From NCBI GenBank assembly GCA_947626575.1, contig CANQSR010000011.1:944-64943 (forward strand): a DNA stretch of 64,000 bases. The letters are read 5' to 3'. This stretch comes from an uncultured Clostridia bacterium. GTDB lineage: Bacteria > Bacillota > Clostridia > Christensenellales > Borkfalkiaceae. Made by a program: the position numbers and the translations under genes. Shown here in pieces: positions 6,198 through 42,454 of this stretch (the stretch's first letter is position 1; every line of letters begins with the position of its first letter). The notes under the pieces are model-generated. The model was given only the letters and a program-made list of their open reading frames with translations, did no database searches and was not told the DNA's origin.

Positions 6198-8297
<2,100 letters not shown>

Positions 8298-8358
8298 ATT
8301 TGGTCTCCTTATCGAAACTTCGCACGCATATTGCGCGTGCGCACATTGTGATAGAGGT

Positions 8359-8387
8359 ATTATACCACAGATGCAGAAAATTATCAA
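8359..8387 (-). promoter_or_regulatory. SigA-type promoter of ftsH
   Basis: On the minus strand: TTGATA (8387-8382), N17, TGG-TATAAT (8364-8359). Confidence 0.65.
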
Positions 8388-8467
8388 GCGAATGCCGGGA
8401 AATCTTTCCCGCTTTTCATGTTTATCACAAAATTTTCGAAATATCCCCGCGCTGTTTGCTGCAAAAT

Positions 8468-8483
8468 TGTTTCATGTGAAACT
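8468..8483. promoter_or_regulatory. Degenerate parS-like site
   Basis: TGTTTCATGTGAAACT has 2 mismatches to the consensus. It lies 42 bp from the perfect site. Confidence 0.5.
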
Positions 8484-8509
8484 GTTCCCAAAAAATTTTC
8501 AAATTCCGA

Positions 8510-8525
8510 TGTTTCACGTGAAACA
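8510..8525. promoter_or_regulatory. parS centromere site (perfect 16-bp palindrome)
   Basis: TGTTTCACGTGAAACA matches the Firmicutes parS consensus TGTTNCACGTGAAACA. It lies about 2.4 kb from soj-parB. Confidence 0.8.
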
Positions 8526-8551
8526 TACAGCGCATAAAAATTTTTGCCCGC

Positions 8552-8592
8552 CGTGGATAGCAATGTGGATAATTTTGTGGAAATGTGGATAA
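8552..8592 (+). promoter_or_regulatory. Second DnaA-box cluster (4 co-oriented boxes in 41 bp)
   Basis: CGTGGATAG at 8552-8560, perfect TGTGGATAA at 8564-8572, TGTGGAAAT at 8576-8584, and perfect TGTGGATAA at 8584-8592. Confidence 0.65.
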
Positions 8593-8595
8593 CCC

Positions 8596-9312
8596 CTCAC
8601 TCGCCGCAGGGAAAATCATGTCATTCCGAACGGATGAGAGGAATCTCCTTATTATAATAAGGTGACCCTTCGGCAAGCTCAGGGTGACGGATTGGAGTCC
8701 CCACTCCCTGTATCCCTCTCCCCAAGGAGAGGGTAGGCCTCGCCACGCCCCCCAAGGGGGCGACGAGAGTGCAGCGACGATGTAGCCGTCTTTCTGAGCC
8801 GCATTGGCTTGGTTTTCAACGAACTGCCCATCCGCGAAGAATCTTATTGCGACCGCGTTCAATGTAGGCAGACTTCGTTTTTCGGGATGTTTCGCTTCGC
8901 TCAACATGACGAGAAATCTCAAAGCGAGATTCCTCACATACGTTCGGAATGACGCGATCTCCCCTTGCCCACCCCTTGAGGGGTGGGTGTCACCAAAGGT
9001 GACGGAAGGGGTGTCATACAAATACGCCACCCCCTCAGCCCCGCAAGGGCGCGGGTCAGCTCCCCCTCAAGGGGGCGCCAAGGATAAGGCCTCGCCGTCC
9101 CTAAGAGAACCCGAAGGCCCTCCCCCCGTTGGGGGGAGGGTGGCACGAGCAACGCGAGTGACGGATGGGGGGGGGAACGGACGGAAGAATGCCCCCCACC
9201 ACCGCCCTGCGGGCAGAGCCTCCCCCCATGTAGGGGTTGGCCTTTCACCCCCTACCTGTCCGCAAAGCGGACGTCCTCCCCCCTCAGGTATAAGGGTGGA
9301 GGCGTCTTCCCA
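8596..9312. repeat. Mosaic repeat block
   Basis: It contains M5(-) at about 8600-8745, M7(-) at 8783-8954, M6(-) at about 8955-9015, M11 at about 9020-9085, an M6-like unit at about 9125-9175, and M10 at about 9185-9250. Confidence 0.85.
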
Positions 9313-9315
9313 ATG

Positions 9316-9343
9316 AAAAATACCGCCGAGAGGCGGTATTTTC
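9316..9343 (-). terminator. Bidirectional hairpin terminator after cvpA
   Basis: AATACCGCC-GAGA-GGCGGTATT, flanked by an A-run on one side and a T-run on the other. Confidence 0.6.
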
Positions 9344-9431
9344 GCGATTTCACATTTTTTTGTTTTCACATTTTCAAATTTTGTATTTCGGCACTTTCGC
9401 ACTTTCGTATTATCGTATTCGTATTCTTCCG

Positions 9432-10007
9432 TTACAGGCGGTTGATGATCCGTCCGGGCAGGTTGGTCGCTTCAATGAACCACTCGGACGTGTAAATGGA
9501 CCTCACCACAACGCTCGATTGGATAAACTCGTTGATAAAATCCGCGTTGATCCAATGGCATACGGTAAGAAGCACGAGAATGAGGAGCAGGGCTTCGCCA
9601 AGACCCAATATTCCGCCCAAAATGCGGTCCGTCACGTTCAGCACTTTGGATTTTTCCACGAGGACGCGCGCTAACTTCCCGATGAGCCATGTGGCAAGTT
9701 TGGTGACGACGAGCAACCCGATAAAGCAGATGACGATGCTCAGCCAGCCCGCAAGCGTCTCGTTCCCCACGCCGTTCGCGATCGCAGTCGTCAGACCGAA
9801 CGAGGATTCCAACGCCGCCTGCAACGGCGTACACATGGAAAACGCGAGTACGACGGCAAGGAGCGTTCCGCCCAACTTACACACGCCGCGCACAAACCCG
9901 CGCGTACAGCCGATGATGAGGCCGATGAGGATGAGCGCGAAAAAGATGACGTCGAGGATCCAACCGCCGCCCGAACCGGCCATCGAGGCCTCGGCAAGCA
10001 AATTCAT
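9432..10007 (-). CDS. cvpA: CvpA-family membrane protein
   Basis: 191 aa with four hydrophobic helices. The N-terminal pattern WILDVIFFALILIGLIIGCTRGFVR is typical of the colicin V production protein family. Confidence 0.7.
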   Translation of the reverse strand: MNLLAEASMAGSGGGWILDVIFFALILIGLIIGCTRGFVRGVCKLGGTLLAVVLAFSMCTPLQAALESSFGLTTAIANGVGNETLAGWLSIVICFIGLLVVTKLATWLIGKLARVLVEKSKVLNVTDRILGGILGLGEALLLILVLLTVCHWINADFINEFIQSSVVVRSIYTSEWFIEATNLPGRIINRL

Positions 10008-11184: not shown

Positions 11185-11570
11185 GGCGCATGGCCTACCC
11201 CCCTATGGGGGGGAAGGCTTGCTCTTGGCGCCCCTGAGAGGTCGCAAAACGCATTTCTCGCACATCAGCACGGTGTGCTGTGTGCGGCGTTTTGCGGTGA
11301 GTGAGCGCATTTGTAGCGCGAACGGTGACCGAACGCGGGGGTCTACCCGCGTGAGACGCTGGCGAGCGAAGCGAGACTGAGGGGTTTCGCATGTTCACGT
11401 CATTTCGAACCCCACGGGGGTGAGAAATCTCTAAGTTGAGATTCCTCACATACGTTCGGAATGACGTATGGAAGCCTTGGTCGTCGGAATGACGCGGGAA
11501 ACCCTTTCGGCCGCTTGCTTCGCTCGCGTCCACTTTCCCTAAAAGGGACAGCGAGAGGCTTTCCGCGCAA
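11185..11570. repeat. Mosaic repeat block
   Basis: It contains intact M2(+) at 11240-11356, M1 at 11399-11465, and an M9-like unit at about 11500-11560. Confidence 0.85.
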
Positions 11571-11620: not shown

Positions 11621-12583
11621 TTACTCCTCATCCCCGGACATGGTAGGGGTCTCTTCCGTCACGGGCGTCGTCTGTTCGGGTTCCTGCCCGTCCTCGGCTT
11701 TCCCTAAATACGTTCCGAAAAATCCCGAAAATCCGCCCTTCTTGTAACCGGGCGTGCCGCCGCGCGAAAGGCTCGTGCCGCTCGTTTCGGGAGTGGCCTC
11801 GGCGGGGAACTCGCGCTTGGGATAGGGCTTCTTATCGCCGTACTTGCGGTCGCGGCCGTTGTCCCTGCCGCGGCCCTTGCCGCCGCGTTTTTCGCCGTAC
11901 TTCTCGCCGTAATGGCCCTTGCCGCCGCGCTTCTCCACGCGCAGGTTTTTGGGGGTGATGACGACATAGCGCGCGGGTTCTTTGCCCTCGCTCTTGGTGG
12001 TCACCTCTTCGTTATCCACGAGCGCCGCGTGGATGATCCTTCTCTCATACGGGTTCATGGGTTCGAGGCGGACCCGCTTCCCCAGCCTCACCGCCTTGGC
12101 CGCGAGCTTTTCGGCGAGCTTCTTCAAGGTCTCCTCGCGCTCTTCGCGGTAATTCCCGCAATCGACGACCACGCGTTTGTATTCCTTCCTGCCCGTGTTG
12201 GCGACCGCGCCCGCGAGCGTCTGGATGGCGTCGATGACCTCGCCGCGCCGCCCGATCAGCCCCTTTGCCGATTCCGCTTGCAGACGGATGACGATCTTCT
12301 CGTCCTCGCTTACGAGTTCGCACGCCGCATCCGAGCCGATGAGCGGGAACAGCCCCGTCAAAAACGCCACGGCGCGCTCGCCGTCGGTATGCTCCGCCGC
12401 TTTCGTCTCTTGCGGCAACGGCTTTTTTTCCACCGTTACCCTTGCGTCCACGTGTCCGATGCCGAACAGGCCGCCTTTTTTGCCCTCGTCGAGGACCTCG
12501 ATGTCTGCTTCCTCACGGGCGATGCCGAGTTGTTTGAGGCCCGCTTCGATGGCGTCCTCTACTGTTTTGCCTTGAAATTCCAT
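11621..12583 (-). CDS. jag: Jag/KhpB RNA-binding protein (Jag_N + KH + R3H) with a long RGG-like C-terminal extension
   Basis: 320 aa. The Jag_N start is MEFQGKTVEDAIEAGLKQLG, the KH motif is GLIGRRGEVIDAIQ, and the R3H motif is MNPYERRIIHAAL. It lies directly downstream of yidC. Confidence 0.85.
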   Translation of the reverse strand: MEFQGKTVEDAIEAGLKQLGIAREEADIEVLDEGKKGGLFGIGHVDARVTVEKKPLPQETKAAEHTDGERAVAFLTGLFPLIGSDAACELVSEDEKIVIRLQAESAKGLIGRRGEVIDAIQTLAGAVANTGRKEYKRVVVDCGNYREEREETLKKLAEKLAAKAVRLGKRVRLEPMNPYERRIIHAALVDNEEVTTKSEGKEPARYVVITPKNLRVEKRGGKGHYGEKYGEKRGGKGRGRDNGRDRKYGDKKPYPKREFPAEATPETSGTSLSRGGTPGYKKGGFSGFFGTYLGKAEDGQEPEQTTPVTEETPTMSGDEE

Positions 12584-12607: not shown

Positions 12608-14233
12608 TCATTTGCGCCGCTTTTTATCATTGTTTCCGCCCTTACCGTGCGTTTCGTCCTTTTTGCCCTTTTCGGGTTTCGCGTTCCCGTCCTTTTCCAT
12701 CCACGGTAGCTTGCGGCCGTAACGTTCCCGGATGCGCTCTTCTTCCTTCTTCTTGAAGATGCCGCCGAGAACGGCGTTGGTGCTGAGCGTCACGAGTAGC
12801 GAGATCACGCTCGACATCGTCATGTAAATACTGAATGCCGCGCTGTACATGAACGCAAAGATCGCATAGATGATGGGCATCATGACGAGCATGACCTTTT
12901 GCGTGGCCGCGCCCTGCCCGTCTACGGTCTGGTATTGGTTGCTCTCCTTCTGGCTGCGCATGGTGATCCATTGCGAAAGCACCATGAGGCCGATGGAGAG
13001 TACGATGAGGATAAAGTACCCGTTGGGAGCGCTCTTCTGGTCCTCCAATTGGGACGTCAGATTTTCATACAGGGGCTGCGTCAGAACGACGTTCAGCTCC
13101 TTGCTCTCCACCGTCCCGTCCGCGCGGGGGATATCCACCCACGAGCTGCCGAGCTGGCTCTTGAACGTGCCGTAATCGGGGATGGGGTGGTTATAGGAGA
13201 CGTCGGGATACCACACGTTCTTGACCCACAAGAACGAGGGATTGTGCGCATCGTACCACACTTTCGCGGCCTTTGCGCCGAGGCTGATGACGTACTCGGT
13301 GCAGGCCGTGTTCTCGCTCTTGGGCGTCGCCGTCTCCTCGCCTTCGGGGACGATTTTGGAATCGGCGACGATCTTCTCCACTGCCTCCTTGGCTTCGGGG
13401 TCCGCGAGCAGGATATCCTTATCGAACCTGTACTCCTCGCGGATGCTCGCCGCGTCGAGATTATAGATGTATTCGAGATAGCGCGCGCTGTCCTGCGCAT
13501 GCACGCGCATATAGCGCGAATTTACCGTTTTCATGACGGCATTGCCGTTTGCGTCCACCTTGGGCGTGCCGTCCTCGTTGAGGTCGGCCTCCTCGTGGGT
13601 GTAGTAAAACATCTCATAGACAACGCCGTCCTCGGACATGGTATGCCCTTCTTCAAAAGTTAGAACATACTCGTCGTCCTCTTTCCCCTCAAACGTGAGG
13701 TGGTAAGGCTTGGCGAAGAGCCACTTCGACGTATCCTCGTGCTGCTCCTTGATGGTCATCGCGAAGTTGGGTCCTACAACGCCGTGTTCCAGAATGGCGG
13801 CGTTGTACTCGTTGGACATGTTGACGAAACTTTCAAGGTTGGCGTAGCGCGAGTAGGCGTTGAAGCCCTGGAATGCGACGATGAGGATGACGATGGAGAG
13901 GATCATGGGCAAGCACGCGCCGAACATGCTGTACCCGTTTTTCTTATAGAGCTCCATCATCTTGGTGTTGTACATCGTCTTATCGTTGGCGTACTGTTGT
14001 TGGAGCTTTTCGAGATCGTCCTTCATATCGCGCATGATGAGGGTCTGTTTGCGCATTTTGAAGCGTTGATAGATATCGAAGGGCAGGGTGATCGCCTTCA
14101 AGACGAGCGTAAACACGATGATGCCGAGACCGATGAGGCCGACGCCCTCGATGATGACGCGCGCAAATTGGCCGAGCCAATCCAGCCCGATATTGTAGCC
14201 CTGTTCGAGCAGGGTGATGCCGATAAAATTCAT
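12608..14233 (-). CDS. yidC: YidC/SpoIIIJ membrane insertase with a large loop insertion
   Basis: 541 aa. It has the conserved TM1, coiled-coil and TM2 (LKAITLPFDIYQRFKMRKQ...MELYKKNGYSMFGACLPMILSIVILIV) and C-terminal TMs with a basic tail. Confidence 0.85.
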   Translation of the reverse strand: MNFIGITLLEQGYNIGLDWLGQFARVIIEGVGLIGLGIIVFTLVLKAITLPFDIYQRFKMRKQTLIMRDMKDDLEKLQQQYANDKTMYNTKMMELYKKNGYSMFGACLPMILSIVILIVAFQGFNAYSRYANLESFVNMSNEYNAAILEHGVVGPNFAMTIKEQHEDTSKWLFAKPYHLTFEGKEDDEYVLTFEEGHTMSEDGVVYEMFYYTHEEADLNEDGTPKVDANGNAVMKTVNSRYMRVHAQDSARYLEYIYNLDAASIREEYRFDKDILLADPEAKEAVEKIVADSKIVPEGEETATPKSENTACTEYVISLGAKAAKVWYDAHNPSFLWVKNVWYPDVSYNHPIPDYGTFKSQLGSSWVDIPRADGTVESKELNVVLTQPLYENLTSQLEDQKSAPNGYFILIVLSIGLMVLSQWITMRSQKESNQYQTVDGQGAATQKVMLVMMPIIYAIFAFMYSAAFSIYMTMSSVISLLVTLSTNAVLGGIFKKKEEERIRERYGRKLPWMEKDGNAKPEKGKKDETHGKGGNNDKKRRK

Positions 14234-14289: not shown

Positions 14290-14771
14290 TTTTTTTCTAA
14301 TGGGAAGGGGGCAAGGCTTCCCCCCTTCGGGGCGGGTTACGACCTATCATGGACAGCAAGAGCGCGAAGGCCCCTCATCGCCGCCACTTCGTCATTTCGA
14401 ACCCCGCAGGGGTGAGAAATCTCAAAGGGCGAGATTCCTCGCTCCGCTACTTCGCCTACGGCTCGTGACGCGCTTAGATTACAATAGAAATCTCGCGCGG
14501 ACGGAATGACGCAAGGGGAAGGCTTTACGCAAACCCATTCTAAATTTCATGCGAATAACCAAAATCACAATTTTGGTTTTCGCCCTCAATTTGCGCGTCA
14601 AGCGCTTCTTGTCCGTTGGAACGTATGAGAGGATAACGCATGTTAAGGCGCGGAAGTATATTTCCCTCACGGGAATTTGTTTGGGGTAAGTTGATGCACA
14701 CCCCCCACCCTACCCTCCCCCCTCTGGTAAAATGGGGGAGGCGAGAGGAACACCCAAACAAATTTCGTGAA
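14290..14771. repeat. Mosaic repeat block splitting yidD from yidC
   Basis: It contains M1 carrying an M8 variant (14391-14510, insert at 14449-14501), M3 at 14551-14623, and the TIR-bounded M4 at 14668-14769. Confidence 0.85.
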
Positions 14772-15074
14772 CTATATCAGCCACTTCTTTTTCCAGAACA
14801 CCTCCGGCGCGGGGTCGATTCCCCCCTTGGAGAAAGGGTTGCAGCGCAAAATCCGCCACGCACCGAGCAGAATGCCGATGACTGCGCCGTAATTATTGAT
14901 ACATCGCTTGGTGTATTCCGAACATGTGGGCGTATAGAGGCAGGTGTGATGCGAAAGACGGCGCTGGTAAAAGGCGATCATGCGGATGCAGACGCCCCGC
15001 AAAAAGGGACGGAATACGCGGCGGCGGAGATACCGCCTGTTTCTCCGGACAAGTTCACGGATTGAGATCTTCAC
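14772..15074 (-). CDS. yidD: Membrane protein insertion efficiency factor YidD
   Basis: Motifs are IAFYQRRLS, TPTCSEYTKRCI, RILRCNPFSKGGIDP. The start is uncertain. GTG 15074 has AAGGAA 8 nt upstream, and the ORF-track ATG is at 15110. It overlaps the rnpA 3' end. Confidence 0.8.
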   Translation of the reverse strand: MKISIRELVRRNRRYLRRRVFRPFLRGVCIRMIAFYQRRLSHHTCLYTPTCSEYTKRCINNYGAVIGILLGAWRILRCNPFSKGGIDPAPEVFWKKKWLI

Positions 15075-15384
15075 CGAGTTTTTCCTTGCCGATGATCCTT
15101 TCGACGTCACGGCTGAACCCCTCGAAAGAATATGCCGCGGCCTTTTTGGGGATGAGAAGCACGTTGCACGGACGGATGGGCCGCGCGGTGCGGAAGGCTT
15201 CCCGAAGGAGCCGCTTGATCCTGTTCCGCTCGACGCTCTTTCCGTATTTCTTCCCCACGCAGACGGCGAGCGCCGTCTCCGGGGCGGGAGAATAGACGAA
15301 AACGAGCGTGTCCCCGTAGACCCGCTTTCCTCCTCGCAATACGGCCGTGATTTTTTTCGCCTTTTTCAGCCGCGCATATTTCAT
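15055..15384 (-). CDS. rnpA: Ribonuclease P protein component
   Basis: 109 aa and basic. VGKKYGKSVERNRIKRLLREAF matches the RnpA signature. It lies immediately downstream of rpmH. Confidence 0.85.
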   Translation of the reverse strand: MKYARLKKAKKITAVLRGGKRVYGDTLVFVYSPAPETALAVCVGKKYGKSVERNRIKRLLREAFRTARPIRPCNVLLIPKKAAAYSFEGFSRDVERIIGKEKLGEDLNP

Positions 15385-15390: not shown

Positions 15391-15525
15391 TTACGCGGAA
15401 ACGTGCTTTCTGCCTCTGTCTCTTCTTCTCTTGATCACTTTTCTGCCGCCGGCAGAAGCCATTCTCTTGCGGAAGCCGTGTACCTTGCTCCGCTGTCTCT
15501 TCTTGGGCTGGTAAGTTCTCTTCAT
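15391..15525 (-). CDS. rpmH: 50S ribosomal protein L34
   Basis: Not in the ORF track because it is under 60 aa. Hand translation gives [44 protein letters not shown], the canonical L34 sequence. Confidence 0.9.
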
Positions 15526-15598
15526 ATCGGTTGCTCCTTGAAGTTCGTGTTATTTGATTATAAGGGTTTTCTCGCCTTGCGTCAAGCGATTTTCCCTC

Positions 15599-16693
15599 TC
15601 ACGCCGCATTTCTGACGGGTAAAATCAGATAGAGGCTGTGTTTATCCTGCGCATTTTGCAGAATGAAGGGCGAAACCGCCCCGTTGAAGGAGACGACGAT
15701 CTCATCCTCGCCGAGCGCTTTCAGGGCGTCGAGCAGGAATTTTGCGTTCATGGAGATGGTAAGTTCCTTCCCCTCCACGCGGGCGGGAACGGGTTCGGAT
15801 ACGTTGCCGTAATCGGAATTGGAGGAGATGCGCACGCCCTCCTGCGAAATTTCCAGCGTGACGAGATTGTTCTTGTCCCCGCGGTTTAAGATGTTGGCGC
15901 GTTCCGCGCTCGCCGTAAGCTGCGCACGGGAGAGCGTCACGACGGTGGAGAACGACGTCGGGATGACGTTTTCCTTCTTGATGAAGTCGCCGAGATACAG
16001 CCGCGAGACGAGCGTAAGGCCGTCCGCGCCCGCCATGAGCATGCCGCTCTGCGTATAGAGGGTGATCTCCTCGCCGTCGCCGAGCATACGCGCGATCTCC
16101 GTGAGCGTGCGCGCGGGGCAGACGATGCTCATCGCATTGCTCTTTTCGAGGATATCCGCCTCGGAGACCGCCAGCCTGTACCCGTCGAGGGCGACCGTTT
16201 CCAGCTTGTCCCCGAAGGTCATAAGGCAGCCTTTGAGGATGGGGCGGGAATCGTCCTGCGCGCAGCAGAACGCCGTCTCGGCGATGACGGTTTTGAGCGC
16301 CTCGGACTTCATGCGGAAGGAGTTTTCCCCGACTTCGAGATCTATCTTGGGGAAATCTTCGGCGGAGAGCGCCTGCATGTAGGAGACGGAATCGCGGTAT
16401 TGCAGTTCCACGCCACGTTCCCCCGTCGAGAAGGAGATCTCCTCATCGGCGAGTTTGGAAGAGAAGTCGGCAAAGAGTTTGCCGGGGACGCAGATCTCGC
16501 CCTCCTCCAAAACTTCCGCGTTTACGAGCTTGCGGATGGAGAGTTCGCCGTCGGTGGCGAGAAGGGAAACGCCTTGCAGCGTCGCCGTGAGTTTGATGCA
16601 CTCCAAAATGGGCGCCGTCGTGCGCACCGCGCACGCCTTGGAAACCTTCGTCACCGCTTCCGAGAGCGTGAGACCGTCTGCAATAAATTTCAT
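15599..16693 (-). CDS. dnaN: DNA polymerase III beta sliding clamp
   Basis: 364 aa, starting MKFIADGLTLSEAVTKVSKACAVRTTAPILECIKL... with three-domain clamp architecture. RBS GAAGGAGAA. Confidence 0.95.
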   Translation of the reverse strand: MKFIADGLTLSEAVTKVSKACAVRTTAPILECIKLTATLQGVSLLATDGELSIRKLVNAEVLEEGEICVPGKLFADFSSKLADEEISFSTGERGVELQYRDSVSYMQALSAEDFPKIDLEVGENSFRMKSEALKTVIAETAFCCAQDDSRPILKGCLMTFGDKLETVALDGYRLAVSEADILEKSNAMSIVCPARTLTEIARMLGDGEEITLYTQSGMLMAGADGLTLVSRLYLGDFIKKENVIPTSFSTVVTLSRAQLTASAERANILNRGDKNNLVTLEISQEGVRISSNSDYGNVSEPVPARVEGKELTISMNAKFLLDALKALGEDEIVVSFNGAVSPFILQNAQDKHSLYLILPVRNAA

Positions 16694-16742
16694 CTTGTTC
16701 TCCTTCGCCGCCTTCTTTGGGAGGTGGACTTATAGAATAAAT

Positions 16743-16771
16743 ATTATAATAATAGTAGTAGGGATGTGGAA
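16743..16771 (-). promoter_or_regulatory. Candidate dnaN promoter overlapping DnaA boxes
   Basis: On the minus strand: TTCCAC (inside a DnaA box), N17, TATAAT. The -35 is weak. Confidence 0.4.
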
Positions 16772-17036
16772 AGCGTGGATAACTTTCCGCCATTTTGCGT
16801 TTCTGACGGTATTATACCGAAAATCGCGGAAAAGGTCAAGAAATTTGCCCCGTTTCCGAAAAAATGCGGGGAAATTTCCCTGTGGAAAGGCGTGTGGAAA
16901 AGTTTACGGCGCGGCATGGAAAAGCGGATAACTTTCCCGCGCCGCCCAAGCGTTTCTTCCCGCGGCGGGAAAGCGGAAGAAGAACGGGGAAGGTTGTCCA
17001 CGGAGATATCCACAATGTGCAAACATGTGGAAACAG

Positions 17037-17065
17037 TTGCAATCTTTATCCACATGTGATACAAT
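17037..17065 (+). promoter_or_regulatory. Candidate rsmG promoter (leaderless geometry) with a perfect DnaA box in the spacer
   Basis: TTGCAA-N17-TACAAT. The -10 ends 7 nt before ATG 17072, and there is no SD. Confidence 0.5.
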
Positions 17066-17071
17066 AAAGAC

Positions 17072-17755
17072 ATGCAGACAGCGCTTCCGGATTTCGGCAG
17101 GATAGCGGCGTGCATTGAGGAGCGGCGCGGCCGCTTCGAGGCATTCTATGCGCTCCTGCGCGCGTATAACGCGCGTTTCAACCTCACCTCCATTATAGAG
17201 GAAGAGGAGGTCTACGTCAAGCATTTTTGTGATTCGCTGGCGGGCATGGACCTCTTTCCCGCGGGTGCGTCCGTCGCGGAAGTGGGTTCGGGGGCGGGGT
17301 TCCCCTCTGTGCCGCTCATGTTGGCGCGCGAGGACCTTTCCTTTACCCTCATCGAGAGTACGGGCAAGAAATGCCGCTTTTTGGAGACGGCCGTGCGTGA
17401 ACTCGGCTTAAAGGCCGAAGTGGTCTGCGGCCGCGCGGAGGACCTTGCGCGGGGGGATTTGCGCGAAAAGTTCGGCGTGTGCTGTGCGCGGGCCGTGGCG
17501 CGGCTGGATACGCTCGCGGAATACTGCATGCCGCTTGTGAAAAAGGGCGGCCTCTTCATTGCCTACAAGGGCGCGGGTGAGATGGAGACGGGCAGGCGCG
17601 CCGTGGAGATCTTGGGCGGCGGCGCCATGAAAGAAATTTCTTACGACCTTCCGCGCGGCTATGGAAAGCGCACGCTGTTTTTGGTGGAAAAGGCGCGGCC
17701 GACGCCGCCGAAGTATCCGCGCGGGAACGGCGCGGAGAGGAGATCGCCGCTATGA
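17072..17755 (+). CDS. rsmG: 16S rRNA (guanine527-N7)-methyltransferase RsmG/GidB
   Basis: 227 aa with the SAM motif VAEVGSGAGFPSVPL and HFCDSL. There is no SD. A TACAAT -10 ends 7 nt before the ATG. Confidence 0.9.
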   Translation: MQTALPDFGRIAACIEERRGRFEAFYALLRAYNARFNLTSIIEEEEVYVKHFCDSLAGMDLFPAGASVAEVGSGAGFPSVPLMLAREDLSFTLIESTGKKCRFLETAVRELGLKAEVVCGRAEDLARGDLREKFGVCCARAVARLDTLAEYCMPLVKKGGLFIAYKGAGEMETGRRAVEILGGGAMKEISYDLPRGYGKRTLFLVEKARPTPPKYPRGNGAERRSPL

Positions 17756-18207
17756 ACAGGGGATTCCGCTGCGCGCTCACGGGCCACCGCGACCTTCCGC
17801 GCGATTTCGATAAGAGCGCGCTGTTCGCCGCACTCGAAAAACTCCTGCGGGAGGGGTTCTGCGTCTTTTACTGCGGCATGGCGCGCGGGTTCGATCTGCT
17901 CGCCCTTTCTTACCTTGTAGAGCGCAAAGCGGCATACCATGCCCGCGTTGAGGCCTTCATTCCGCACATGCAACAGGCGGAGTATTACGGCGAGAAAGAC
18001 CGTGAAATGTATGAGCGGCTCCTCAAACAGTGCGAAGTCGTGCATCTCGTCGCGCCGGTATATTTCAAGGGCTGCGAACTCTTCCGCGACAGGATGATGG
18101 TGGACCGGGCCGACCTCGTGTTCGCATACCTGACGCAGGAGACGGGCGGCACCGCGTACACGGTGAATTATGCGCGTTCGCAGGGCGTCGAGGTCAGGTT
18201 TTTATAG
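17752..18207 (+). CDS. DUF1273/YpsA-like SLOG-family protein
   Basis: 151 aa. The pattern TGHRDL...CGMARGFDLLA...FRDRMMVDRADLVFAY resembles DUF1273. It overlaps the rsmG stop by 4 nt. Confidence 0.65.
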   Translation: MNRGFRCALTGHRDLPRDFDKSALFAALEKLLREGFCVFYCGMARGFDLLALSYLVERKAAYHARVEAFIPHMQQAEYYGEKDREMYERLLKQCEVVHLVAPVYFKGCELFRDRMMVDRADLVFAYLTQETGGTAYTVNYARSQGVEVRFL

Positions 18208-18216: not shown

Positions 18217-19383
18217 ATGGAGAAAGTTGCATTTGCGGACGGCGAAAAGATAGGCGTCATCGGAGAGGACGGCGTCTCGTTCTATGAGAGCGAAACGATC
18301 GCCCGCTACCGGGAATATGCCGAAACGCGCCAAAAAAACGACGAATGGAAGTATTCTGGCGAAGGCGCGCGGTTCCGCGGCGACACGGCGAAAAACGCCG
18401 CCGTGCAGACAGACGCCTATGTCAACGGCGTCGCGTGGCAGGACGGCAAAATCGTCTATGCCTACACCGTGGGCGGGTCGTCGGGCGTATGCAGAAGGCC
18501 GCAGGACCCCAAGGCGCGCGAGGAGCATATCTATTCCGCGTCCGACGCCGAGATCCTCTCCGTGCAGACGTTGGGTCCCTCTGTTGCCGTCACGGTAAAG
18601 CGCGACGAAGCCACTTCGCAGGTGGGGATCCTCGACGGGAATACGAGCGAACTCGTGACGTTTACCGAGGGGGACGCGCGCGACGCCAACGCCGCGTTCG
18701 ACGCGGCCCATCCCATGTGGATACTCTTTGACAGCGCGGGCGCGGGGCGGCTCGCGAACGGGGAGTTTTCGGGGCAGTATGCCCCCGCCGTCCTCATGCG
18801 GTTAGACCGCGAAACGCTCGCGCTCGAAGAGGTAAAGCGCGACGGCAAAAATTCCTGCGTCAAGCCCAAAACCGACGCGGACGGCGCGCTGTACTATATC
18901 AGGCGGCCCAACAAAGAGCGGCGGGATTCCGTCGTTTGGGATATTCTGCTCTTTCCCTTCCGCCTCGTGAAAGCGTTCTTCGGGCTGTTGCAGGCGTTCA
19001 CGGTCATCTTCGGAAAAACAAGCCTGACCTCGGACATGGGTACGGGCAATAATCCCACAAGCGGCAGAAAACAGGATGCGCGCAAGCTGTTCGTGGACGG
19101 CCGTCTCATCGACGCAGAGAAGGAAGAAAAGCGCAACCGCAAGCGGAAGGACCATACATACGGCTTTATCCCCGCGAGCTGGAAGCTGATGAAGGCGGCG
19201 GACGGCGCGGACGAGGTCCTCGCGAGCGGCGTGTGCGATTTTTCCGTCGGCCGCGAAGGCATTTATTATACGGACGGCCGCCATATCTACAAACTTTCGG
19301 GCGGCAAGGAGACCAAGCTCGCCGATACGAAGTGTTGTCTTAGCCTCTGCGCGGAACCGTCCGCCGAAGAATTCGATTTTTGA
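18217..19383 (+). CDS. Hypothetical protein with one central TM helix
   Basis: 388 aa with an AGGAGAAGGA RBS. The TM is VVWDILLFPFRLVKAFFGLLQAFTVIFG. The C-terminal GIYYTDGRHIYK motif looks like a beta-propeller/DUF5050 motif. Confidence 0.6.
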   Translation: MEKVAFADGEKIGVIGEDGVSFYESETIARYREYAETRQKNDEWKYSGEGARFRGDTAKNAAVQTDAYVNGVAWQDGKIVYAYTVGGSSGVCRRPQDPKAREEHIYSASDAEILSVQTLGPSVAVTVKRDEATSQVGILDGNTSELVTFTEGDARDANAAFDAAHPMWILFDSAGAGRLANGEFSGQYAPAVLMRLDRETLALEEVKRDGKNSCVKPKTDADGALYYIRRPNKERRDSVVWDILLFPFRLVKAFFGLLQAFTVIFGKTSLTSDMGTGNNPTSGRKQDARKLFVDGRLIDAEKEEKRNRKRKDHTYGFIPASWKLMKAADGADEVLASGVCDFSVGREGIYYTDGRHIYKLSGGKETKLADTKCCLSLCAEPSAEEFDF

Positions 19384-19384: not shown

Positions 19385-19900
19385 CGGATACGGATATCCA
19401 AACGCCGGGAAGCCTCCCCCTTGTGAGGGGAAGACCTGCCCCCTTTTAAGGGGTCGCAAAACGCGCTTCTCGCACATCAGCACAGTGTGCTGTGGGCGGC
19501 GTTTTGCGGGGAGTGAGCGCATTTGCCGCGCGAACGGTGACCGAACGCGGGGTTCTACCCGCGTGAGAGGGTGGCGCGGCTTTGCCGCGTCAGGTGGGGG
19601 TGATGAAAGGCGAGAGAATGTCCCCCCCACCACCGCCCTGCGGGCGGAGCCTCCCCCCATGGGGGGTAGGCCTTTTACTATTCGTCATTCCGCACGAGGC
19701 TTCTATTCGTCATTCCGAGCGGAGCGACGAAGTAGCGCAGTCGAGGAATCACCTTATTATAATCATGTGACCCTTCGACGGGCTCAGGGTGACGGATTTA
19801 CCCCCCCCACTCCCTCAATCCCTCTCCCCAAGGAGCGGGTAGCTCTTACTTACGTCCTTCCGCGGGAAAACCGACAAAAGCTGCTTTTTTCCGACCCCAT
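19385..19900. repeat. Mosaic repeat block
   Basis: It contains M2(+) at 19452-19568, M10 at about 19615-19670, and M5(-) at about 19745-19850. Confidence 0.85.
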
Positions 19901-19957
19901 ATGACATTTTTTTCTCCCTTCCGCCTGTTATACTCATGCGGAGAAGGAGAATTTTTT

Positions 19958-20911
19958 ATGCCGTTTGAAAAGAGAGTTTGCGTACTCAAACAAGTTAAAA
20001 AGGGATTTACCGCAGACGGCAGCGCCCTATCCGGCGCCGTCTACTGCGAACGGTTGGGCGAGGAGATCACGGTCATGCCCCGCCTCTTGGGCATCGCGCC
20101 CGTCAAGGAGGGCCGCTATGCGCTCGCGCTGTGGGTGGCGGGCGGCGTCTATATCGTCGATCTGAACGGCGGGGCCAATGCGAAGATCGTTGCGCCGTCC
20201 ATGAAGGAGGGCGTGGCGGTGCTGCTCGTCTTTATCCGCAACGGGGAACCCAGCCCCGTCGCCTTCGGCAGTTGCGGGGCCGCACCCGCGTCTTACGAAG
20301 GCATTCTCGCCGAGATTTCCGCCCGCGAGAGGAAAAAGAAGGCACCCATGCCCGTACCCCCCGCCGCAGTTCCCACGGGATACCCCAACAATGCGCCCGT
20401 CGCGCCGCCGCAAGAAGAACCCTTTCGCGAAGAGAAATACGACGACGAAGCCATCGCCGAAGAAAACTTCTACCGTGAACGCGCGGTGCATGAAGATGCA
20501 ACAGCTGAAACGGAAGGCGCAAATGAGCCGCGCGAGGCAGGGGATCCGCCTTGCGGGGATGAAGAAGCGGTACATCCGTTCCGTGTCACAGCGGGCGGCC
20601 TTACATATTACCACACCGTGCGGGAAAAACTCCGGGAAGCCTTCGCCCGCTTCGAGAAGGATACGCGCCTCACGGCCGTATTCCCCTGTTCCGAATGGGT
20701 AAGGTCGGAGGGGGCGTTGCTCGGCATCATCTATGAGGGCGGACTGCCACGCTACCTGTGCGTTGCGGTGGAAGCCGCGGGCGAGCCGCCGGAGGAGATG
20801 AAGGAGCATTGCCAATTCGTCCCCGCGGGACCCTTTTCGGATACGGAGGGGTTTTATATAGTCTTTCAATCCGCCGACAGCGGGGAGTACGTGACTGTTT
20901 CTTCGGGCTAA
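19958..20911 (+). CDS. Hypothetical protein
   Basis: ORF 19901..20911. I prefer ATG 19958 (MPFEKRVCVLKQVKKGF...), which has GGAGAAGGAGAA 7 nt upstream. Confidence 0.6.
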   Translation: MPFEKRVCVLKQVKKGFTADGSALSGAVYCERLGEEITVMPRLLGIAPVKEGRYALALWVAGGVYIVDLNGGANAKIVAPSMKEGVAVLLVFIRNGEPSPVAFGSCGAAPASYEGILAEISARERKKKAPMPVPPAAVPTGYPNNAPVAPPQEEPFREEKYDDEAIAEENFYRERAVHEDATAETEGANEPREAGDPPCGDEEAVHPFRVTAGGLTYYHTVREKLREAFARFEKDTRLTAVFPCSEWVRSEGALLGIIYEGGLPRYLCVAVEAAGEPPEEMKEHCQFVPAGPFSDTEGFYIVFQSADSGEYVTVSSG

Positions 20912-23290: not shown

Positions 23291-24866
23291 ATATGCTTTT
23301 CTGCGGGGCGGGCGAGGCCTTGGCGCCCCTAAGAGGGGAGCTGGCACCGCAGGTGCCTGAGGGGTTTCGCTCTCGTCGCCCCTTTTAGGTCGCAAAACGC
23401 ACTTTTCGCACATCAGCACAGTGTGCTGTGGGCGGCGTTTTGCGGTGAGTGAGCGCATTTACCGCGCGAACGGTGACCGTCCAACCGAGGCTTCTATTTA
23501 TTATCGAAGGTCGCCACGAGCCGCAGGCGAAGTAACGCGGGGGGCTACCCGCGCGAGAAAGATGTCACGAGCTTGCGAGTGACAGAGGGGTTTTGAAACC
23601 CTTTCCCCCTTCGCAGGCTCAGGGTACTTTCCCTAAAAGGGACGGCTAGTTAGCGCGTGCGTTACCCTGATTGTACGTCATTCCGAGGAGCGAAGCGACG
23701 AGAAATCTCGTCTCTCGTCATGTTGAGCGAAGCGAAACATCCCGAAAAACGAAGTCCGCCTACATTGAACGCGGTCGCAATAAGATTCTTCGCGGATGGG
23801 CAGTTCGTTGAAAGTCATCCCTATGCGGCTCAGAATGACGGCTACTTCGTCGCTGCACTCTCGTCGCCCCTCTTGTGGGTCGCGGCAAGGCTACCCTCTC
23901 CTTGGGGAGAGGGACTAAGGGAGTGGGGATAAATCCGTCACCCTGAGCTTGCCGATGGGTCACATTATAATAATAAGGAGATTCCTCGGCAGAGCCTCGG
24001 AATGACGTATGGGAGCGCGGACGGAATGACGGATAGTATGACACCCCTTCCGTCACTCGCGTTGCTCGTGACACCCACCCCTCAAAGGGGTGGGCAAGGG
24101 GGCGCGTGCGTACGTCATTTCGAGGAGCGAAGCGACGAGAAATCTCGTCCCTCGTCATGTTGAGCGAAGCGAAACATCCCGAAAAACGAAGTCCGCCTAC
24201 ATTGAACGCGGTCGTAATAAGATTCTTCGCGGATAGGTAGTTCGTTGAAAGTCATCCTTATGCGGCTCAGAATGACAGCTACACCCCTTCCGTCACTCGC
24301 GTTGCTCGTGACACCCACCCCTCAAAGGGGTGGGCGAGGGGGCGCGTGCGTTGCCCTGATTGTATGTCATTCCGAGGAGCAAAGCGACGAGAAATCTCGT
24401 TCCCCGTCATGTTGAGCGAAGAGAAACATCCCGAAAAACGAAGTCCGCCTACATTGAACGCGGTCGCAATAAGATTCTTCGCGGATAGGCAGTTCGTTGA
24501 AAACCAAGCCAATGCGGCTCAGAATGACGGCTACTTCGTCGCCCCCTTGGGGCCGCGGCGAGGCCTACCCTCTCCTTGGGGAGAGGGATTAAGGGAGTGG
24601 GGATAAATCCGTCACCCTGAGCTTGCCGAAGGGTCACATTATTATAAGGAGATTCCTCGGCAGAGCCTCGGAATGACGTATATTTCCCACCTCAGTCACG
24701 CGTGACAGCTCCTCCCCAGGGGGCGCTATCGGAAACCCTTTATCCTCATTCCGAACGGAGCGAAGCGGAGTGAGTGAATTCGAATTGGTTCCATATGCCT
24801 CTTTGTTCAAGATACACTCCCCGCTCACTGCGTTCGGGGTCGGTATGAGGGAAAACTCCTTCATCC
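23291..24866. repeat. Largest mosaic repeat block (about 1.6 kb)
   Basis: It contains M2(+)::M8 at 23388-23558 (insert 23480-23533), M9 at about 23560-23650, three 169-bp M7 copies (23676-23844, 24113-24281, 24365-24533), M5 twice (about 23880-24010 and 24555-24680), M6 twice (about 24040-24100 and 24283-24345), and M13(-) at about 24745-24860. Confidence 0.9.
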
Positions 24867-25989: not shown

Positions 25990-25990
25990 C

Positions 25991-26600
25991 TTGTGGTTTT
26001 CCGCGGGGTGGGGTGAGGCCTACCCCCTCCTTGGGGAGAGGGACTAAGGGAGTGGGGATAAATCCGTCACCCTGAGCTTGCCGAAGGGTCACATTATAAT
26101 AAGGTGATTCCTCACTTCGTTCGGAATGACGCATAGGAGCGCGGACGGAATGACGGCTACATCGTCGCTGCGTTCCTCGTCGCCCCTAAAGAGGGGAGAT
26201 GTCACGAGCTTGCGAGAGACAGAGGGGTTTTGAAACCCTTTCCCCCTTCGCAGGCTCAGGGTACTTTCCCTTTCAGGGACAGCAAGGGGGGCGGGCGGAA
26301 TGACGGATAGTATGACACCCCTTCCGTCACTCGCGTTGCTCGTGCCACCCACCCCTCAAAGGGGTGGGCGAGGGGGCGCGTGCGTTGCCCTGATTGTACG
26401 TCATTTCGAGGAGCGAAGCGACGAGAAATCCCGTTCCACGTCATGTTGAGCGAAGCGAAACATCCCGAAAAACGAAGTCCGCCTACATTGAACGCGGTCG
26501 CAATAAGATTCTTCGCGGATGGGCAGTTCGATGAAAGTCATCCTTATGCGGCTCAGAATGACGGCTGCTCCCTACCACGGTCTCCTCCGCGTCCTCGTCA
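25991..26600. repeat. Mosaic repeat block
   Basis: It contains M5 at about 26010-26130, M9 at about 26195-26285, M6 at about 26313-26375, and M7 at 26399-26566. Confidence 0.85.
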
Positions 26601-31364: not shown

Positions 31365-32400
31365 TGTGATTTGTTCCCCAAGGGGACAGCGCAAAGGCCT
31401 ACCCCCCACGGGGGGAGGCTCCGCCCGCAGGGCGGTGGTGGGGGGTAGGCTTCCCCCACCTGTCTCGCTGCGCGAGCCACCCGCCCCCACAAGCAGGGGC
31501 GGGTCTCGTCGCCCCTTATAGGGGAGATGTCACGAGCCTGCGAGTGACAGAGGGGTTTTGAACCCCTTTCGGCCCGTTGGGCCACTTTCCCCCAAGGGGA
31601 CAGCAAGAGCGCAAAGGCCTACCTCCCACGGGGGGCGGGACGCGGCTCGTTCGGGCAGGACGCTACTCATGCTCCCCACCCCCTTGGGGAGTCCCCCTCC
31701 CACGGGAGGGGGTAGAAGCGGCCCGTCGCTCGGACGTGGCAAATCAATGGCTCCGTAGACGCCTGGGGGGAGGGCTTCCAATTACTTGCCTTAGCCCGAA
31801 TTGATTTCGGGCGTGGGCGACCAAATTTGCAGAGTCTTGTCTGCTTCTTGTCCGTTGAAACGAACAAGAGGATAATGCAAGTTAAGGCGTTAAAGTATAT
31901 TTCCCTCACGGTTGCGGACTTACGACACCCCTTTGGTCGCGCAAGGACGGCGCGACACTTTCCCCTCAAGGGGACAGCGAGAAAAAAGCAAAACAAATTT
32001 CGTGAATAAAATTTCTTGCGAATAACCAAAATCGCATTTTGGTTTTCGCCCTCAATTTGCGCGTCAAGCGCTTGTTGTTCGTTGGAACGAATGAGAGGAC
32101 CAAGTAAATGAAGGCGGGGAAGTAAATTTCCCTCACGGAAATTTGTTTGGGGTTCGTTGATGCACCCCCTACCTAAATCCTCCCCCCTCAGGTATAAGGG
32201 GGGAGGCGGGGGTACAACCAAACAAATTTCGTGAATAAAATTTCTTGCGAATAACCAAAACCACGCTTTTGGTTTTCGCCCTCAATTTGCGCGTCAAGCG
32301 CTTGTTGTCCGTTGAAACGAACAAGAGGACCAAGTAAATGAAGGCGCGGGCGTTTGTTTCCCTCGTTGGATTTGTTTTCCGCAGGAAAAGAAATCCAACG
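31365..32400. repeat. Mosaic repeat block (about 1 kb)
   Basis: It contains M10 at about 31395-31450, M9 at about 31525-31600, M14 at about 31780-31870, M3 twice (about 32020-32095 and 32253-32325), and M4 at 32134-32233. Confidence 0.85.
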
Positions 32401-40462: not shown

Positions 40463-40870
40463 CTATTGTTCCCCCTCATACCGACCCCGAACGCAGTGAG
40501 CGGGGAGTGTATCTTGAACGAAAAAGCATTCATTGAACCAATTCGAATTCACTCACTTCGCTTCGTTCGGAATGAGGCATCGGGGCGACGAGAACAAGCC
40601 TCTTGCCCACCCCTTGAGGGGTGGGTGTCACCGCAGGTGACGGAAGGGGTGTCATATAAAAACACCCCCTACCTGTCACGGCAGAGCCGTGACGTCCGTC
40701 TCACGCGGGTAGAACCCCGCGTTCGGTCACCGTTCGCGCTACAAATGCGCTCACTCACCGCAAAACGCCGCACACAGCACACCGTGCTGATGTGCGAGAA
40801 GCGCGTTTTGCGACCCCTCAGGTATAAGGGGGGAGGCGGGCGTCTCCCCTCATATGGACCCCAAGGGGGG
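40463..40870. repeat. Mosaic repeat block
   Basis: It contains M13(+) at about 40470-40575, M6 at about 40600-40655, and intact M2(-) at 40699-40815. Confidence 0.85.
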
Positions 40871-41747: not shown

Positions 41748-41749
41748 GA

Positions 41750-42105
41750 CTTCCCCTTGCTGTCCCTTATTGTAACAATGTGACCCTTCGACAGGCTCAG
41801 GGTGACGGATTTATCCCCACTCCTTGAATCCCTCTCCCCAAGGAGAGGGTAGGCCGAACGTCGTTACGTCCGCGCGAGGCGTTCTATTCGTCATTCCGAA
41901 CGAAGTGAGGAATCTCGTTTTTTGAGATTTCTCACCCCTGCGGGGTTCGGAATGACGTATTGGGCGATGGGTACATGCCTCTTGCCCATCACTACAAGGG
42001 GCGACGAGACCTTGCTGTCCCTTATCGTAATAATGTGACCCTTCGACAGGCTCAGGGTGACGGATTTATTCCCCGTCCGCGCAATCCGCCGAGGGTGGGC
42101 AAGGC
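41750..42105. repeat. Mosaic repeat block
   Basis: It contains M5(-) at about 41770-41860, M1 at 41890-41956, and an M5 fragment at about 42030-42075. Confidence 0.8.
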
Positions 42106-42312: not shown

Positions 42313-42425
42313 TGCGGCACACTCCGTTGAAGCCCTGCGGCCGCCAAAACGGCCGCGCGGGACATAAAATACCGTTCCCTGCACAAAAATTTTCCAAAAA
42401 ACGTGCAAGTTTCACGGGTTTTTGA

Positions 42426-42454
42426 TTGCCAAAAGCCTTGATTTAGTTTATAAT
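42426..42454 (+). promoter_or_regulatory. SigA-type promoter of the 845-aa ORF (large lipoprotein gene)
   Basis: TTGCCA-N17-TATAAT. Confidence 0.6.

Follow-up and report, generated by a model that had tools for sequence, protein, structure and literature searches.

This clostridial chromosome very probably has its replication origin in the 378-bp intergenic gap between dnaN and rsmG. Judging from sequence comparisons, we place at roughly 0.88 the probability of the full reading: the gap is an oriC used in the canonical, DnaA-dependent mode, dnaA has moved away from it, and the resulting layout has become fixed in a clade of uncultured Clostridia. We favor this reading because a complete module of DnaA boxes, spacer, DnaA-trios and A/T-rich tract lies directly upstream of dnaN, because 138 related loci conserve both this module and the order of the genes, and because several origin-proximal marks surround the gap: strand bias and skew switch here, gyrBA is in the region, and two parS sites lie next to parAB at a distance of 8 kb. 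The initial annotation of the window (the whole 64-kb stretch analyzed here) had proposed an origin at this place, and these observations support the proposal. What is new is the clade-wide, dnaN-linked origin context, which is unusual for Firmicutes; the same layout in cyanobacteria and the canonical mechanism were known already.

The dnaN-rsmG gap and its surroundings

The genes around the gap had been described as a leftward dnaN followed by rpmH, rnpA, yidD, yidC and jag, with rsmG pointing rightward. Pfam searches confirmed all of these except rpmH, which does lie directly behind dnaN, and gyrB was likewise placed in the window, away from the origin:

11621-12583, minus strand: jag (Pfam)
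12608-14233, minus strand: yidC (Pfam)
14772-15074, minus strand: yidD (Pfam)
15055-15384, minus strand: rnpA (Pfam)
15391-15525, minus strand: rpmH, ribosomal protein L34, directly downstream of dnaN
15599-16693, minus strand: dnaN, sliding clamp of 364 aa (Pfam, all three DNA_pol3_beta domains)
16694-17071, no strand: candidate oriC, the gap between the divergent genes dnaN and rsmG (box count, density, conserved blocks)
17072-17755, plus strand: rsmG, diverging from the origin candidate (Pfam)
17752-18207, plus strand: ypsA, diverging from the origin candidate
52876-54789: gyrB

Gene orientation switches at the gap, as had been claimed: to its left, 12 of 13 genes are minus-strand, and to its right, 21 of 22 are plus-strand, a count that took in the genes identified with Pfam, rpmH and the unassigned ORF at 890-2782. 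Because the same flanking genes are common to the relatives, the orientation argument is not independent across them. The minima of cumulative GC, AT and purine skew in the 64-kb window fell at 13,694, 17,918 and 15,613, respectively, all within 3 kb of the gap; the GC skew alone is weak and noisy, and with only 64 kb visible the chromosome-wide minimum is out of view.

Additional origin-proximal sites were found with parAB at a distance of 8 kb from the gap, upstream of ftsH-parA-parB:

8468-8483: parS site with two mismatches
8510-8525: parS site, perfect TGTTTCACGTGAAACA
8544-8592: four head-to-tail DnaA boxes, two of them perfect, after the parS pair

The parS pair upstream of ftsH was kept in nearly all relatives holding ftsH, and about 11 of these have a box cluster beside it.

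The gap itself holds nine DnaA boxes in 378 bp at no more than two mismatches to TTATCCACA, against 0.92 expected from the window background of 2.44 per kb at that stringency (Poisson P = 6e-7), and four at no more than one mismatch (P = 5e-6). The earlier count of at least nine box-like 9-mers, one of them perfect, was thereby borne out. No other 400-bp stretch in the window is as dense in boxes, and over 57 related loci plus the window the boxes were 23-fold enriched in the gap (6.8 vs. 0.29 per kb). The distal boxes returned by the box search are as follows:

16881-16889, minus strand: DnaA box
16893-16901, minus strand: DnaA box
16923-16931, minus strand: DnaA box
16994-17002, plus strand: DnaA box
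17006-17014, plus strand: DnaA box
17026-17034, minus strand: DnaA box
17046-17054, plus strand: DnaA box, the only perfect one in the gap

Several of them are conserved columns in an alignment of 35 species. If they act like the distal boxes in Bacillus subtilis incC (PMC6669920), these seven would raise the local concentration of DnaA. Rfam and tRNA scans of the 64-kb window gave no match.

The unwinding module and the promoter-like sites

On the dnaN side of the distal boxes, the gap contains a second group of elements, and promoter-like sites face both flanking genes:

16730-16761, no strand: A/T-rich tract, presumed DNA unwinding element, overlapping the trios (read from the sequence)
16747-16761, plus strand: five DnaA-trios, TAA TAA TAG TAG TAG (read from the sequence; pattern search)
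16762-16764, plus strand: 3-nt G/C-rich spacer GGA, between trios and boxes (read from the sequence)
16765-16782, minus strand: two tandem origin-proximal DnaA boxes, TTATCCACG then CTTTCCACA toward dnaN (box search; pattern search)
16811-16839, minus strand: promoter-like TTGACC-17-TATAAT toward dnaN, upstream of the unwinding module (11 of 12 consensus positions)
17037-17065, plus strand: promoter-like TTGCAA-17(TG)-TACAAT for rsmG, with a perfect DnaA box in its spacer

The basal unwinding system has been defined by at least three DnaA-trios (NAN, consensus 3'-GAT-5') no more than 16 bp from a box with at most two mismatches; its usual form has tandem boxes and 10-13 bp between the better box and the trios (PMC8287927). 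In the window, TTATCCACG and CTTTCCACA are joined by the spacer to five trios of the form 3'-GAT/AAT-5', the GAT ones adjoining the boxes, and 12 bp lie between the better box and the trios. The A/T-rich tract adjoins the trios and is about 88% A/T over 16730-16761 in a window of 58% G+C; the nearly pure A/T run that had been reported at 16731-16760 indeed has A or T at 27 of its 30 positions.

We infer that DnaA binding, unwinding and firing take place at this gap, in a sequence of steps modeled on B. subtilis. DnaA would bind the tandem boxes at 16765-16782, with the seven distal boxes at 16881-17054 as its supply; it would then oligomerize across the 3-nt spacer onto the five trios at 16747-16761 and open the adjoining A/T-rich tract, where the helicase would load and from which forks would depart both ways.

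This set of elements is shared by the relatives. The equivalent tandem pair upstream of their dnaN genes is conserved with the consensus TTGTCCACA-TTTCCAC, nearly all of them have an A/T-rich run after the trios, and boxes, promoters, trios and A/T tract form aligned conserved blocks in 35 species. A strict box-spacer-trio pattern, searched for in 4 Mb, occurred at 110 sites, 107 of which were upstream of dnaN; just upstream of this gene lay 62 of 62 sites in the genome-derived loci (2.1 Mb) and 45 of 48 in the metagenome loci (1.9 Mb). Two of the exceptions were loci with ypsA between the module and dnaN. The strict pattern was failed by about 14 of 58 genome loci and by half of the metagenome loci, most of which have a degenerate version that is recognizable by eye. 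With DnaN diverging to as little as 47% identity, boxes, spacing and trios are all under clear purifying selection.

Both promoters had been said in the initial annotation to overlap DnaA boxes. For rsmG this is correct: the perfect box sits in the spacer of its putative promoter, the ATG begins 6 nt past the -10 hexamer, and hexamer and adjacent box are conserved in the 35-species alignment. For dnaN it is not: the best site (16839-16811), conserved in relatives as CTTGAA-17-TATAAT, lies between the two groups of boxes and off any box. A transcript from this putative promoter would nevertheless cross both boxes of the module and the unwinding site, and DnaA occupancy probably tunes dnaN and rsmG as well. 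A promoter-like site of its own precedes rpmH (15585-15557).

Might the cluster serve only to place dnaN and rsmG under DnaA control, or to titrate DnaA, with the true origin elsewhere beside dnaA? The missing dnaA, the boxes in or near both promoter-like sites and the weak GC skew would suit such an explanation, as would the non-origin box cluster at 8544-8592; non-origin clusters are also known in B. subtilis (PMC2533591). We nonetheless find it unlikely. Regulation has no need of tandem boxes, spacer, five trios and A/T tract in a fixed geometry; the module pattern is essentially absent elsewhere in the 4 Mb scanned; and replication-linked gene orientation flips exactly at the gap. More distant relatives (labeled Christensenellales bacterium or Clostridia bacterium) also argue against it. 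In these, dnaA is divergent from dnaN (L148), in tandem with it (L156) or 2 kb downstream of it (L153), and L148 and L156 have the same module upstream of dnaN even with dnaA adjacent. Like the window, the distant relatives have neighbors that include parAB, cvpA, DUF1256, ftsH and rpmH-jag; unlike the window, all three of these loci still have dnaA nearby. Other contigs labeled Christensenellales, moreover, carry a solitary dnaA with neither dnaN nor a box cluster in its vicinity. In L161 and L158, dnaA is next to recF or between rsmI and rpmE.

A clade-wide layout and the search for dnaA

Uncultured Clostridia, some of them labeled Christensenellaceae, supplied 138 related loci with the arrangement of the window, in which rsmG leads away from oriC on one side and dnaN, rpmH, rnpA, yidC and jag lead away on the other. 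Of the 104 loci that reach far enough, 101 have a divergent rsmG no more than 1.5 kb from dnaN on its upstream side, and rnpA lies downstream of dnaN in 125 of 125. Origin contigs of related MAGs measure 448 kb (CANQFA01), 404 kb (CAJULB01), 316 kb and 302 kb, and in samples ERZ1108162 and ERZ1106930 such contigs have 570-650x coverage. The layout is fixed across a large clade. The best 120 DnaN matches were all at least 67% identical and all within the clade, and a metagenome scan with a DnaN alignment returned, among the matches listed, clade members only; the DnaN of the window is 41% identical to that of MAGs labeled Christensenellales bacterium. A search for canonical neighbors by way of identical L34 proteins led to the same species only.

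These loci bear directly on whether the arrangement without dnaA could stem from faulty assembly or binning. The window does come from a 65.9-kb metagenome-derived contig, in a genome full of interspersed repeats that break assemblies. The same junctions, however, were assembled independently in 138 contigs that come from many studies and hosts, among them contigs of 300-450 kb and contigs with identical proteins from several samples, and the origin gap is free of interspersed repeats. We regard an artefact as scarcely credible.

The absence of dnaA and recF from the 64 kb, asserted in the initial annotation, was upheld: tblastn with the DnaA proteins of E. coli and B. subtilis gave no match in the window even at E<=1, nor did RecF queries from two relatives. 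Neither gene was found in the approximately 10 kb past the window's right end that are covered by same-species contigs with identical proteins, and no dnaA occurred within 10 kb on either side of the gap in the 138 related loci (1.95 Mb). To the left of the window, same-species contigs break in the same repeat-rich spot.

Individual candidates for dnaA were rejected. The ORF at 49624-51021 encodes MazG and a methylase instead. Those at 18217-19383, 19901-20911, 890-2782 and 42422-44959 have no DnaA similarity and no significant Pfam match, two of them showing marginal matches only (E about 0.07). A dnaA just past tilS-hpt in two loci (L086 and L095) was discounted, since their neighbors differ from the arrangement in L158; so was the idea of a second dnaN paralogue beside dnaA, since the dnaN of L153 groups with outgroup DnaN.

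An exhaustive search of representatives identified the nearest outgroup DnaN, whose contig supplied a Christensenellales DnaA for further searches. Assignment of DnaA proteins to the clade was attempted by nucleotide overlap, shared repeats, composition and identity pattern, amino-acid composition proving an unreliable proxy; among approximately 206 near-full-length DnaA matches (the best 120 per search), none was assignable to the clade. Because DnaA proteins of the clade are expected to rank below the best 120, their absence among the matches listed is uninformative. The gene presumably lies at another chromosomal site, which in this species would be over 16.7 kb from the origin on the left side and over approximately 57 kb from it on the right.

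A clade devoid of DnaA would account both for the lack of the gene in the 1.95 Mb that surround the origins in 138 relatives and for the listed matches; the boxes would then be relics or the targets of some other protein, as in DnaA-independent bacteria. We consider this remote: relics would decay, whereas boxes, spacing and trios are maintained down to 47% DnaN identity; perfect boxes are overrepresented elsewhere in the window as well (22 vs. 5.6 expected); and the clade's DnaA proteins are expected to rank below the matches listed. A variant, in our estimation very unlikely, has the conserved box-trio module read by a different initiator or another replication route used in a clade without any DnaA or, in a milder form, dnaA residing at a distant, box-less locus. 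Were the last the case, the ancestral two-part origin would have been split, with loss of initiator autoregulation and of origin-linked gene dosage; and were dnaA at a box-less locus, as in two related contigs, control of the amount of initiator would have to differ from the B. subtilis model.

In the reading that we prefer, a canonical oriC abandoned by its initiator gene, the unwinding module would have stayed with dnaN while dnaA left and rsmG came to stand in its place; rpmH-rnpA-yidD-yidC-jag now trail dnaN on the same strand.

Comparison with known origins and use as a marker

Like the window, B. subtilis incC (DnaA-box#6/#7) has tandem boxes, a short G/C-rich spacer, 3'-GAT/AAT-5' trios, an A/T-rich tract and the dnaN start, in the same order and orientation, with further boxes 100-280 bp distal. 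The B. subtilis origin is bipartite, however, with the module placed between dnaA and dnaN and another cluster of boxes upstream of dnaA, whereas the window has no dnaA, all boxes within one 378-bp gap, and rsmG as the far flank. The bipartite order of Firmicutes, with rpmH followed by boxes, dnaA, boxes with the module, and dnaN, is not that of the window or of the 138 loci, which have no dnaA; rpmH follows dnaN on the same strand rather than diverging from dnaA-dnaN.

Cyanobacterial origins are typically linked to dnaN, with dnaA elsewhere, which has been explained by dnaA having been translocated out of an ancestral dnaA-dnaN origin (PMC4009838); this explanation fits the present clade too. 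As in cyanobacteria, the window has its boxes, several of the TTTTCCACA type, clustered directly upstream of dnaN with no adjacent dnaA, and it is a dnaN-linked origin as defined in that work (PMC4009838). The window differs in belonging to another phylum and reflecting an independent event, in having dnaN followed by rpmH-rnpA-yidC-jag and facing rsmG, and in its clear trio module. The dnaN-linked origin is shared with cyanobacteria in layout, not by descent.

In E. coli, oriC lies approximately 42 kb from dnaA. Situated between mnmG/gidA and mioC, it resembles the window in the uncoupling of the initiator gene and in having a gid-family gene as a neighbor. It differs in being GATC-rich, whereas the gap has no GATC sites and is flanked by dnaN and rsmG instead of mnmG and mioC, and in its module, which scores weakly in E. 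coli (PMC8287927) and is strong here. The uncoupling had been called unusual; that holds for Firmicutes but not for bacteria generally, given the cyanobacteria (PMC4009838) and the separation of oriC from dnaA in E. coli (PMC8287927). We found no literature linking Christensenellaceae or Christensenellales to dnaA or to an origin.

When growth rates are estimated from metagenome coverage, the outcome depends on the assumed position of the origin. Origin finders take dnaA as their default indicator gene (PMC10225481), a marker that would misplace the origin in these Clostridia; the gap between rsmG and dnaN, or the box-trio module upstream of dnaN, would serve better. In the clade and in the two relatives with a confirmed module, the lasting unit is the unwinding module with dnaN, rather than dnaA with the origin, a linkage that is useful in judging the minimal ancestral origin. 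The layout is carried by an abundant group of gut Clostridia, sampled from rabbits, mice, ruminants and humans.

DnaA boxes and predicted unwinding elements in the dnaN-rsmG gap

The 378-bp intergenic region between the divergent dnaN and rsmG genes (16694-17071; hereafter "the gap") had been proposed from sequence alone to hold an oriC-like cluster of at least nine DnaA boxes, including a perfect one. Scanning confirmed this: the gap contains nine boxes with two or fewer mismatches to TTATCCACA (four with at most one; one perfect), compared with 0.92 expected from the window background (Poisson P = 6e-7). No 400-bp stretch elsewhere in the window is equally dense. From rsmG to dnaN, the elements are arranged as follows:

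17037-17065: rsmG promoter-like site, with the perfect DnaA box within its spacer
between 17054 and 16881: seven DnaA boxes, on the rsmG side of the dnaN promoter-like site
16839-16811: dnaN promoter-like site TTGACC-17-TATAAT, directed at dnaN
16782-16765: tandem boxes TTATCCACG and CTTTCCACA, on the dnaN side of that promoter-like site
between the tandem boxes and the trios: 3-nt spacer
16747-16761: five trinucleotides, TAA TAA TAG TAG TAG in plus-strand reading (equivalent to 3'-GAT/AAT-5', GAT closest to the boxes)
dnaN end of the gap: A/T-rich tract, then the ribosome-binding site, then the dnaN start

The basal unwinding system, defined for B. subtilis incC and present in most bacterial origins (PMC8287927; PMC6669920), comprises a box no more than 16 bp from at least three NAN trios; the boxes are usually tandem, and the better one lies 10-13 bp from the trios (PMC8287927). 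In the gap, this distance is 12 bp, and we conclude that its tandem boxes, spacer, trios and A/T tract are such a system. By analogy, the window's distal boxes may be the counterpart of the distal part of incC, whose proposed role is to increase DnaA concentration locally (PMC6669920).

Two further properties of the gap were observed. The rsmG -10 hexamer ends 6 nt upstream of the ATG (17060-17074), so the rsmG mRNA may be leaderless. When single-stranded, the gap adopts a more stable fold than its shuffled counterparts do (z = -4.7), probably owing to its oppositely oriented boxes.

Strand bias and conservation of the layout

Pfam scans bore out the neighborhood described in the initial annotation, namely dnaN and rsmG as flanks and rpmH-rnpA-yidD-yidC-jag after dnaN. 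To the left of the gap, the order on the minus strand is parB, parA, ftsH, cvpA, jag, yidC, yidD, rnpA, rpmH, dnaN, with a plus-strand DUF1256 gene between cvpA and jag. To the right lie rsmG and ypsA on the plus strand and, farther on, PEPCK, H+-pyrophosphatase, cysS, alaS, spoVT, mazG, dus, gyrB, gyrA, grpE, dnaK and dnaJ, nearly all on the same strand. The reported switch in strand bias was likewise upheld: when Pfam-assigned genes, rpmH and the unassigned ORF 890-2782 are counted, the minus strand carries 12 of 13 genes on the left and the plus strand carries 21 of 22 on the right. The G+C content of the window is ~58%. Cumulative skew reaches its minima at 13,694 (GC), 17,918 (AT) and 15,613 (purine), the GC skew of the window being weak when taken alone.

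A DnaN scan of species-representative genomes returned 58 loci (DnaN identity 84% to 47%) from rabbit, mouse, ruminant, human and other samples; all are metagenome-assembled genomes (MAGs) labelled uncultured Clostridia, Christensenellaceae, Christensenella sp., Ca. Borkfalkiaceae or Ca. Scatosoma. A metagenome scan added 80, for a total of 138 loci (1.95 Mb) of what we call the clade. Among these, rsmG is divergent and no more than 1.5 kb upstream of dnaN in 101 of the 104 loci that reach far enough, and rnpA follows dnaN in 125/125. DnaA boxes are 23-fold enriched in the rsmG-dnaN gaps. The strict box-spacer-trio pattern occurs upstream of dnaN in 44/58 genome loci and 37/73 metagenome loci; most loci failing it have a degenerate version, as judged by eye. 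Strict-pattern sites fell upstream of dnaN in 62 of 62 cases in the 2.1 Mb scanned for genome loci and in 45 of 48 in 1.9 Mb for metagenome loci. Aligning 35 gaps revealed conserved blocks at both promoters (that of rsmG together with its box), at the box groups and tandem boxes, and at the trios and A/T tract. DnaN of the clade stands apart: an exhaustive representative-protein search put clade representatives at 52% and 47% identity to that of the window, and all others at ≤42%.

The box cluster, the complete unwinding module, the clade-wide conservation and the strand and skew switch within these 64 kb support the interpretation of the gap as the replication origin, to which we assign a probability of roughly 0.88.

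Position of dnaA and comparison with known origins

As the initial annotation had claimed, neither dnaA nor recF was found in the window; nor did dnaA turn up in the ~10 kb past its right end on contigs of this species (L062/L063). E. coli and B. subtilis DnaA queries (the latter validated by its 43% identity, E = 4e-138, to E. coli DnaA) had no match, even at E ≤ 1, across the 138 loci (1.95 Mb). The proposed uncoupling of dnaA from the origin is real and clade-wide. Mainly from the purifying selection visible on the boxes and trios, we infer that dnaA is probably encoded elsewhere in these genomes.

Contigs of more distant relatives, together with three lone-dnaA contexts of unplaced lineage, carry dnaA as follows (< and >, direction of transcription; //, intergenic region):

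L148 (Christensenellales bacterium, nearest outgroup, DnaN 41% identical): jag< yidC< rnpA< rpmH< PHP< M42< tilS< dnaA< // >dnaN
L156 (another lineage): canonical recF< dnaA> module dnaN>
L153 (another lineage): dnaN> two genes dnaA>
L152 (lineage not placed): dnaA, with no dnaN in reach (3.7 kb upstream, 10 kb downstream)
L158/159 (Christensenellales bacterium, 50% G+C): tilS> hpt> MTS> rsmI> dnaA> rpmE> prmC> prfA>, with neither dnaN nor a box cluster within 10 kb of dnaA
L160/161 (61% G+C): recF< // dnaA>, with a box-free 387-bp gap and no dnaN within 10 kb of dnaA

L148 has a box-trio module like that of the window upstream of dnaN, and the window's layout probably derives from an L148-type order (rpmH< ... 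dnaA< // module >dnaN) by two rearrangements. Inversion of the PHP-through-dnaN segment would make dnaN the immediate upstream neighbour of rpmH and leave the origin on the other side of dnaN; a second event, breaking the order between the origin and dnaA, would join rsmG-ypsA to the origin. Within the clade, symmetric exchanges around the origin are seen: parAB-ftsH lies on the rsmG side or the jag side, depending on lineage.

The three lone-dnaA contexts (L152, L158/159 and L160/161), whose lineage could not be placed, show identities to reference DnaAs in a pattern that matches that of the most basal DnaN lineage sharing the clade's gene order. They look as the missing half of the window's arrangement would be expected to; none could be tied to the clade by contig or genome.

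By its predicted mechanism, the window's probable origin is an ordinary DnaA-type origin. It does not have the bipartite layout of Firmicutes, since the defining feature, dnaA between two box clusters, is missing. Cyanobacteria have the same dnaN-linked layout without adjacent dnaA: their origin typically neighbours dnaN only, and a translocation of dnaA has been put forward for them (PMC4009838). Uncoupling from dnaA is all that the window's origin has in common with the E. coli origin; in contrast to the latter, the gap has 0 GATC sites and no mnmG or mioC neighbours. A literature search found no paper describing a dnaA-uncoupled origin for Christensenellales or Christensenellaceae. The gene context is new, and the kind of element and its mechanism are already known; the finding is useful in practice for predicting origins in gut MAGs and has some evolutionary interest.

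Across L148, L152, L153, L156, L158 and L161, dnaA varies unusually in its placement with respect to dnaN: it is in tandem, divergent, 2 kb downstream or solitary. No box with ≤1 mismatch occurs in the recF-dnaA gap of L161, and the single 1-mismatch box near dnaA in L158 is inside the gene; because neither has a box cluster upstream of dnaA, autoregulation of dnaA may be absent in both. In one of three contigs (L155, 7053-8157), the dnaN near dnaA was called as two pieces of 82 and 254 aa, reflecting either a frameshift or an assembly error.

parS sites, repeats and other local features

A further origin-proximal mark is a pair of parS sites 8.2 kb away from the gap and upstream of ftsH-parA-parB; one is a perfect TGTTTCACGTGAAACA, a 16-bp palindrome. 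After the pair, whose members are ~42 bp apart, come four DnaA boxes arranged head to tail, of which two are perfect (8468-8592). Almost all relatives that include ftsH keep the pair upstream of it, and the adjacent box cluster recurs in ~11 loci.

In the 73-bp gap after dnaN, rpmH has its own strong promoter-like site (TTGACG-17-TATAAT, 15557-15585, minus strand), so the rpmH-rnpA operon need not rely on dnaN transcription. Two plus-strand ORFs near the origin, 18217-19383 (388 aa) and 19901-20911 (336 aa), have no significant Pfam match; a minority of relatives also carry the former, next to ypsA or at another site close to the origin. In one relative (L034), an insertion of ~2 kb (7683-9720) bearing two ORFs (202 and 412 aa) separates ypsA from the origin, and rsmG-ypsA is inverted, yet the unwinding module is still directly upstream of dnaN. 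The gyrB and gyrA genes are usually adjacent; here, a DUF559 gene and two copies of a 229-bp tandem repeat (98% identical, 238 bp start-to-start) lie between them, at 54804-55265 and 55436-55902.

The genome is dense in short interspersed repeat modules; the 64 kb contain at least 60 families of direct repeats and 159 inverted pairs. They occur in most of the larger intergenic regions (e.g., 1-890, 8600-9320, 11200-11470, 14390-14770, 19420-19800, 23360-24660, 25990-26570, 31760-32400, 40690-40855, 41740-42070, 47555-47885, 52190-52860, 55430-55990, 58800-59130 and 62800-63150); the origin gap contains none. A check of the more distant contigs L152, L158, L160 and L161 revealed none of these modules. 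Contig ends of the window species and its relatives often fall at repeat-rich spots.
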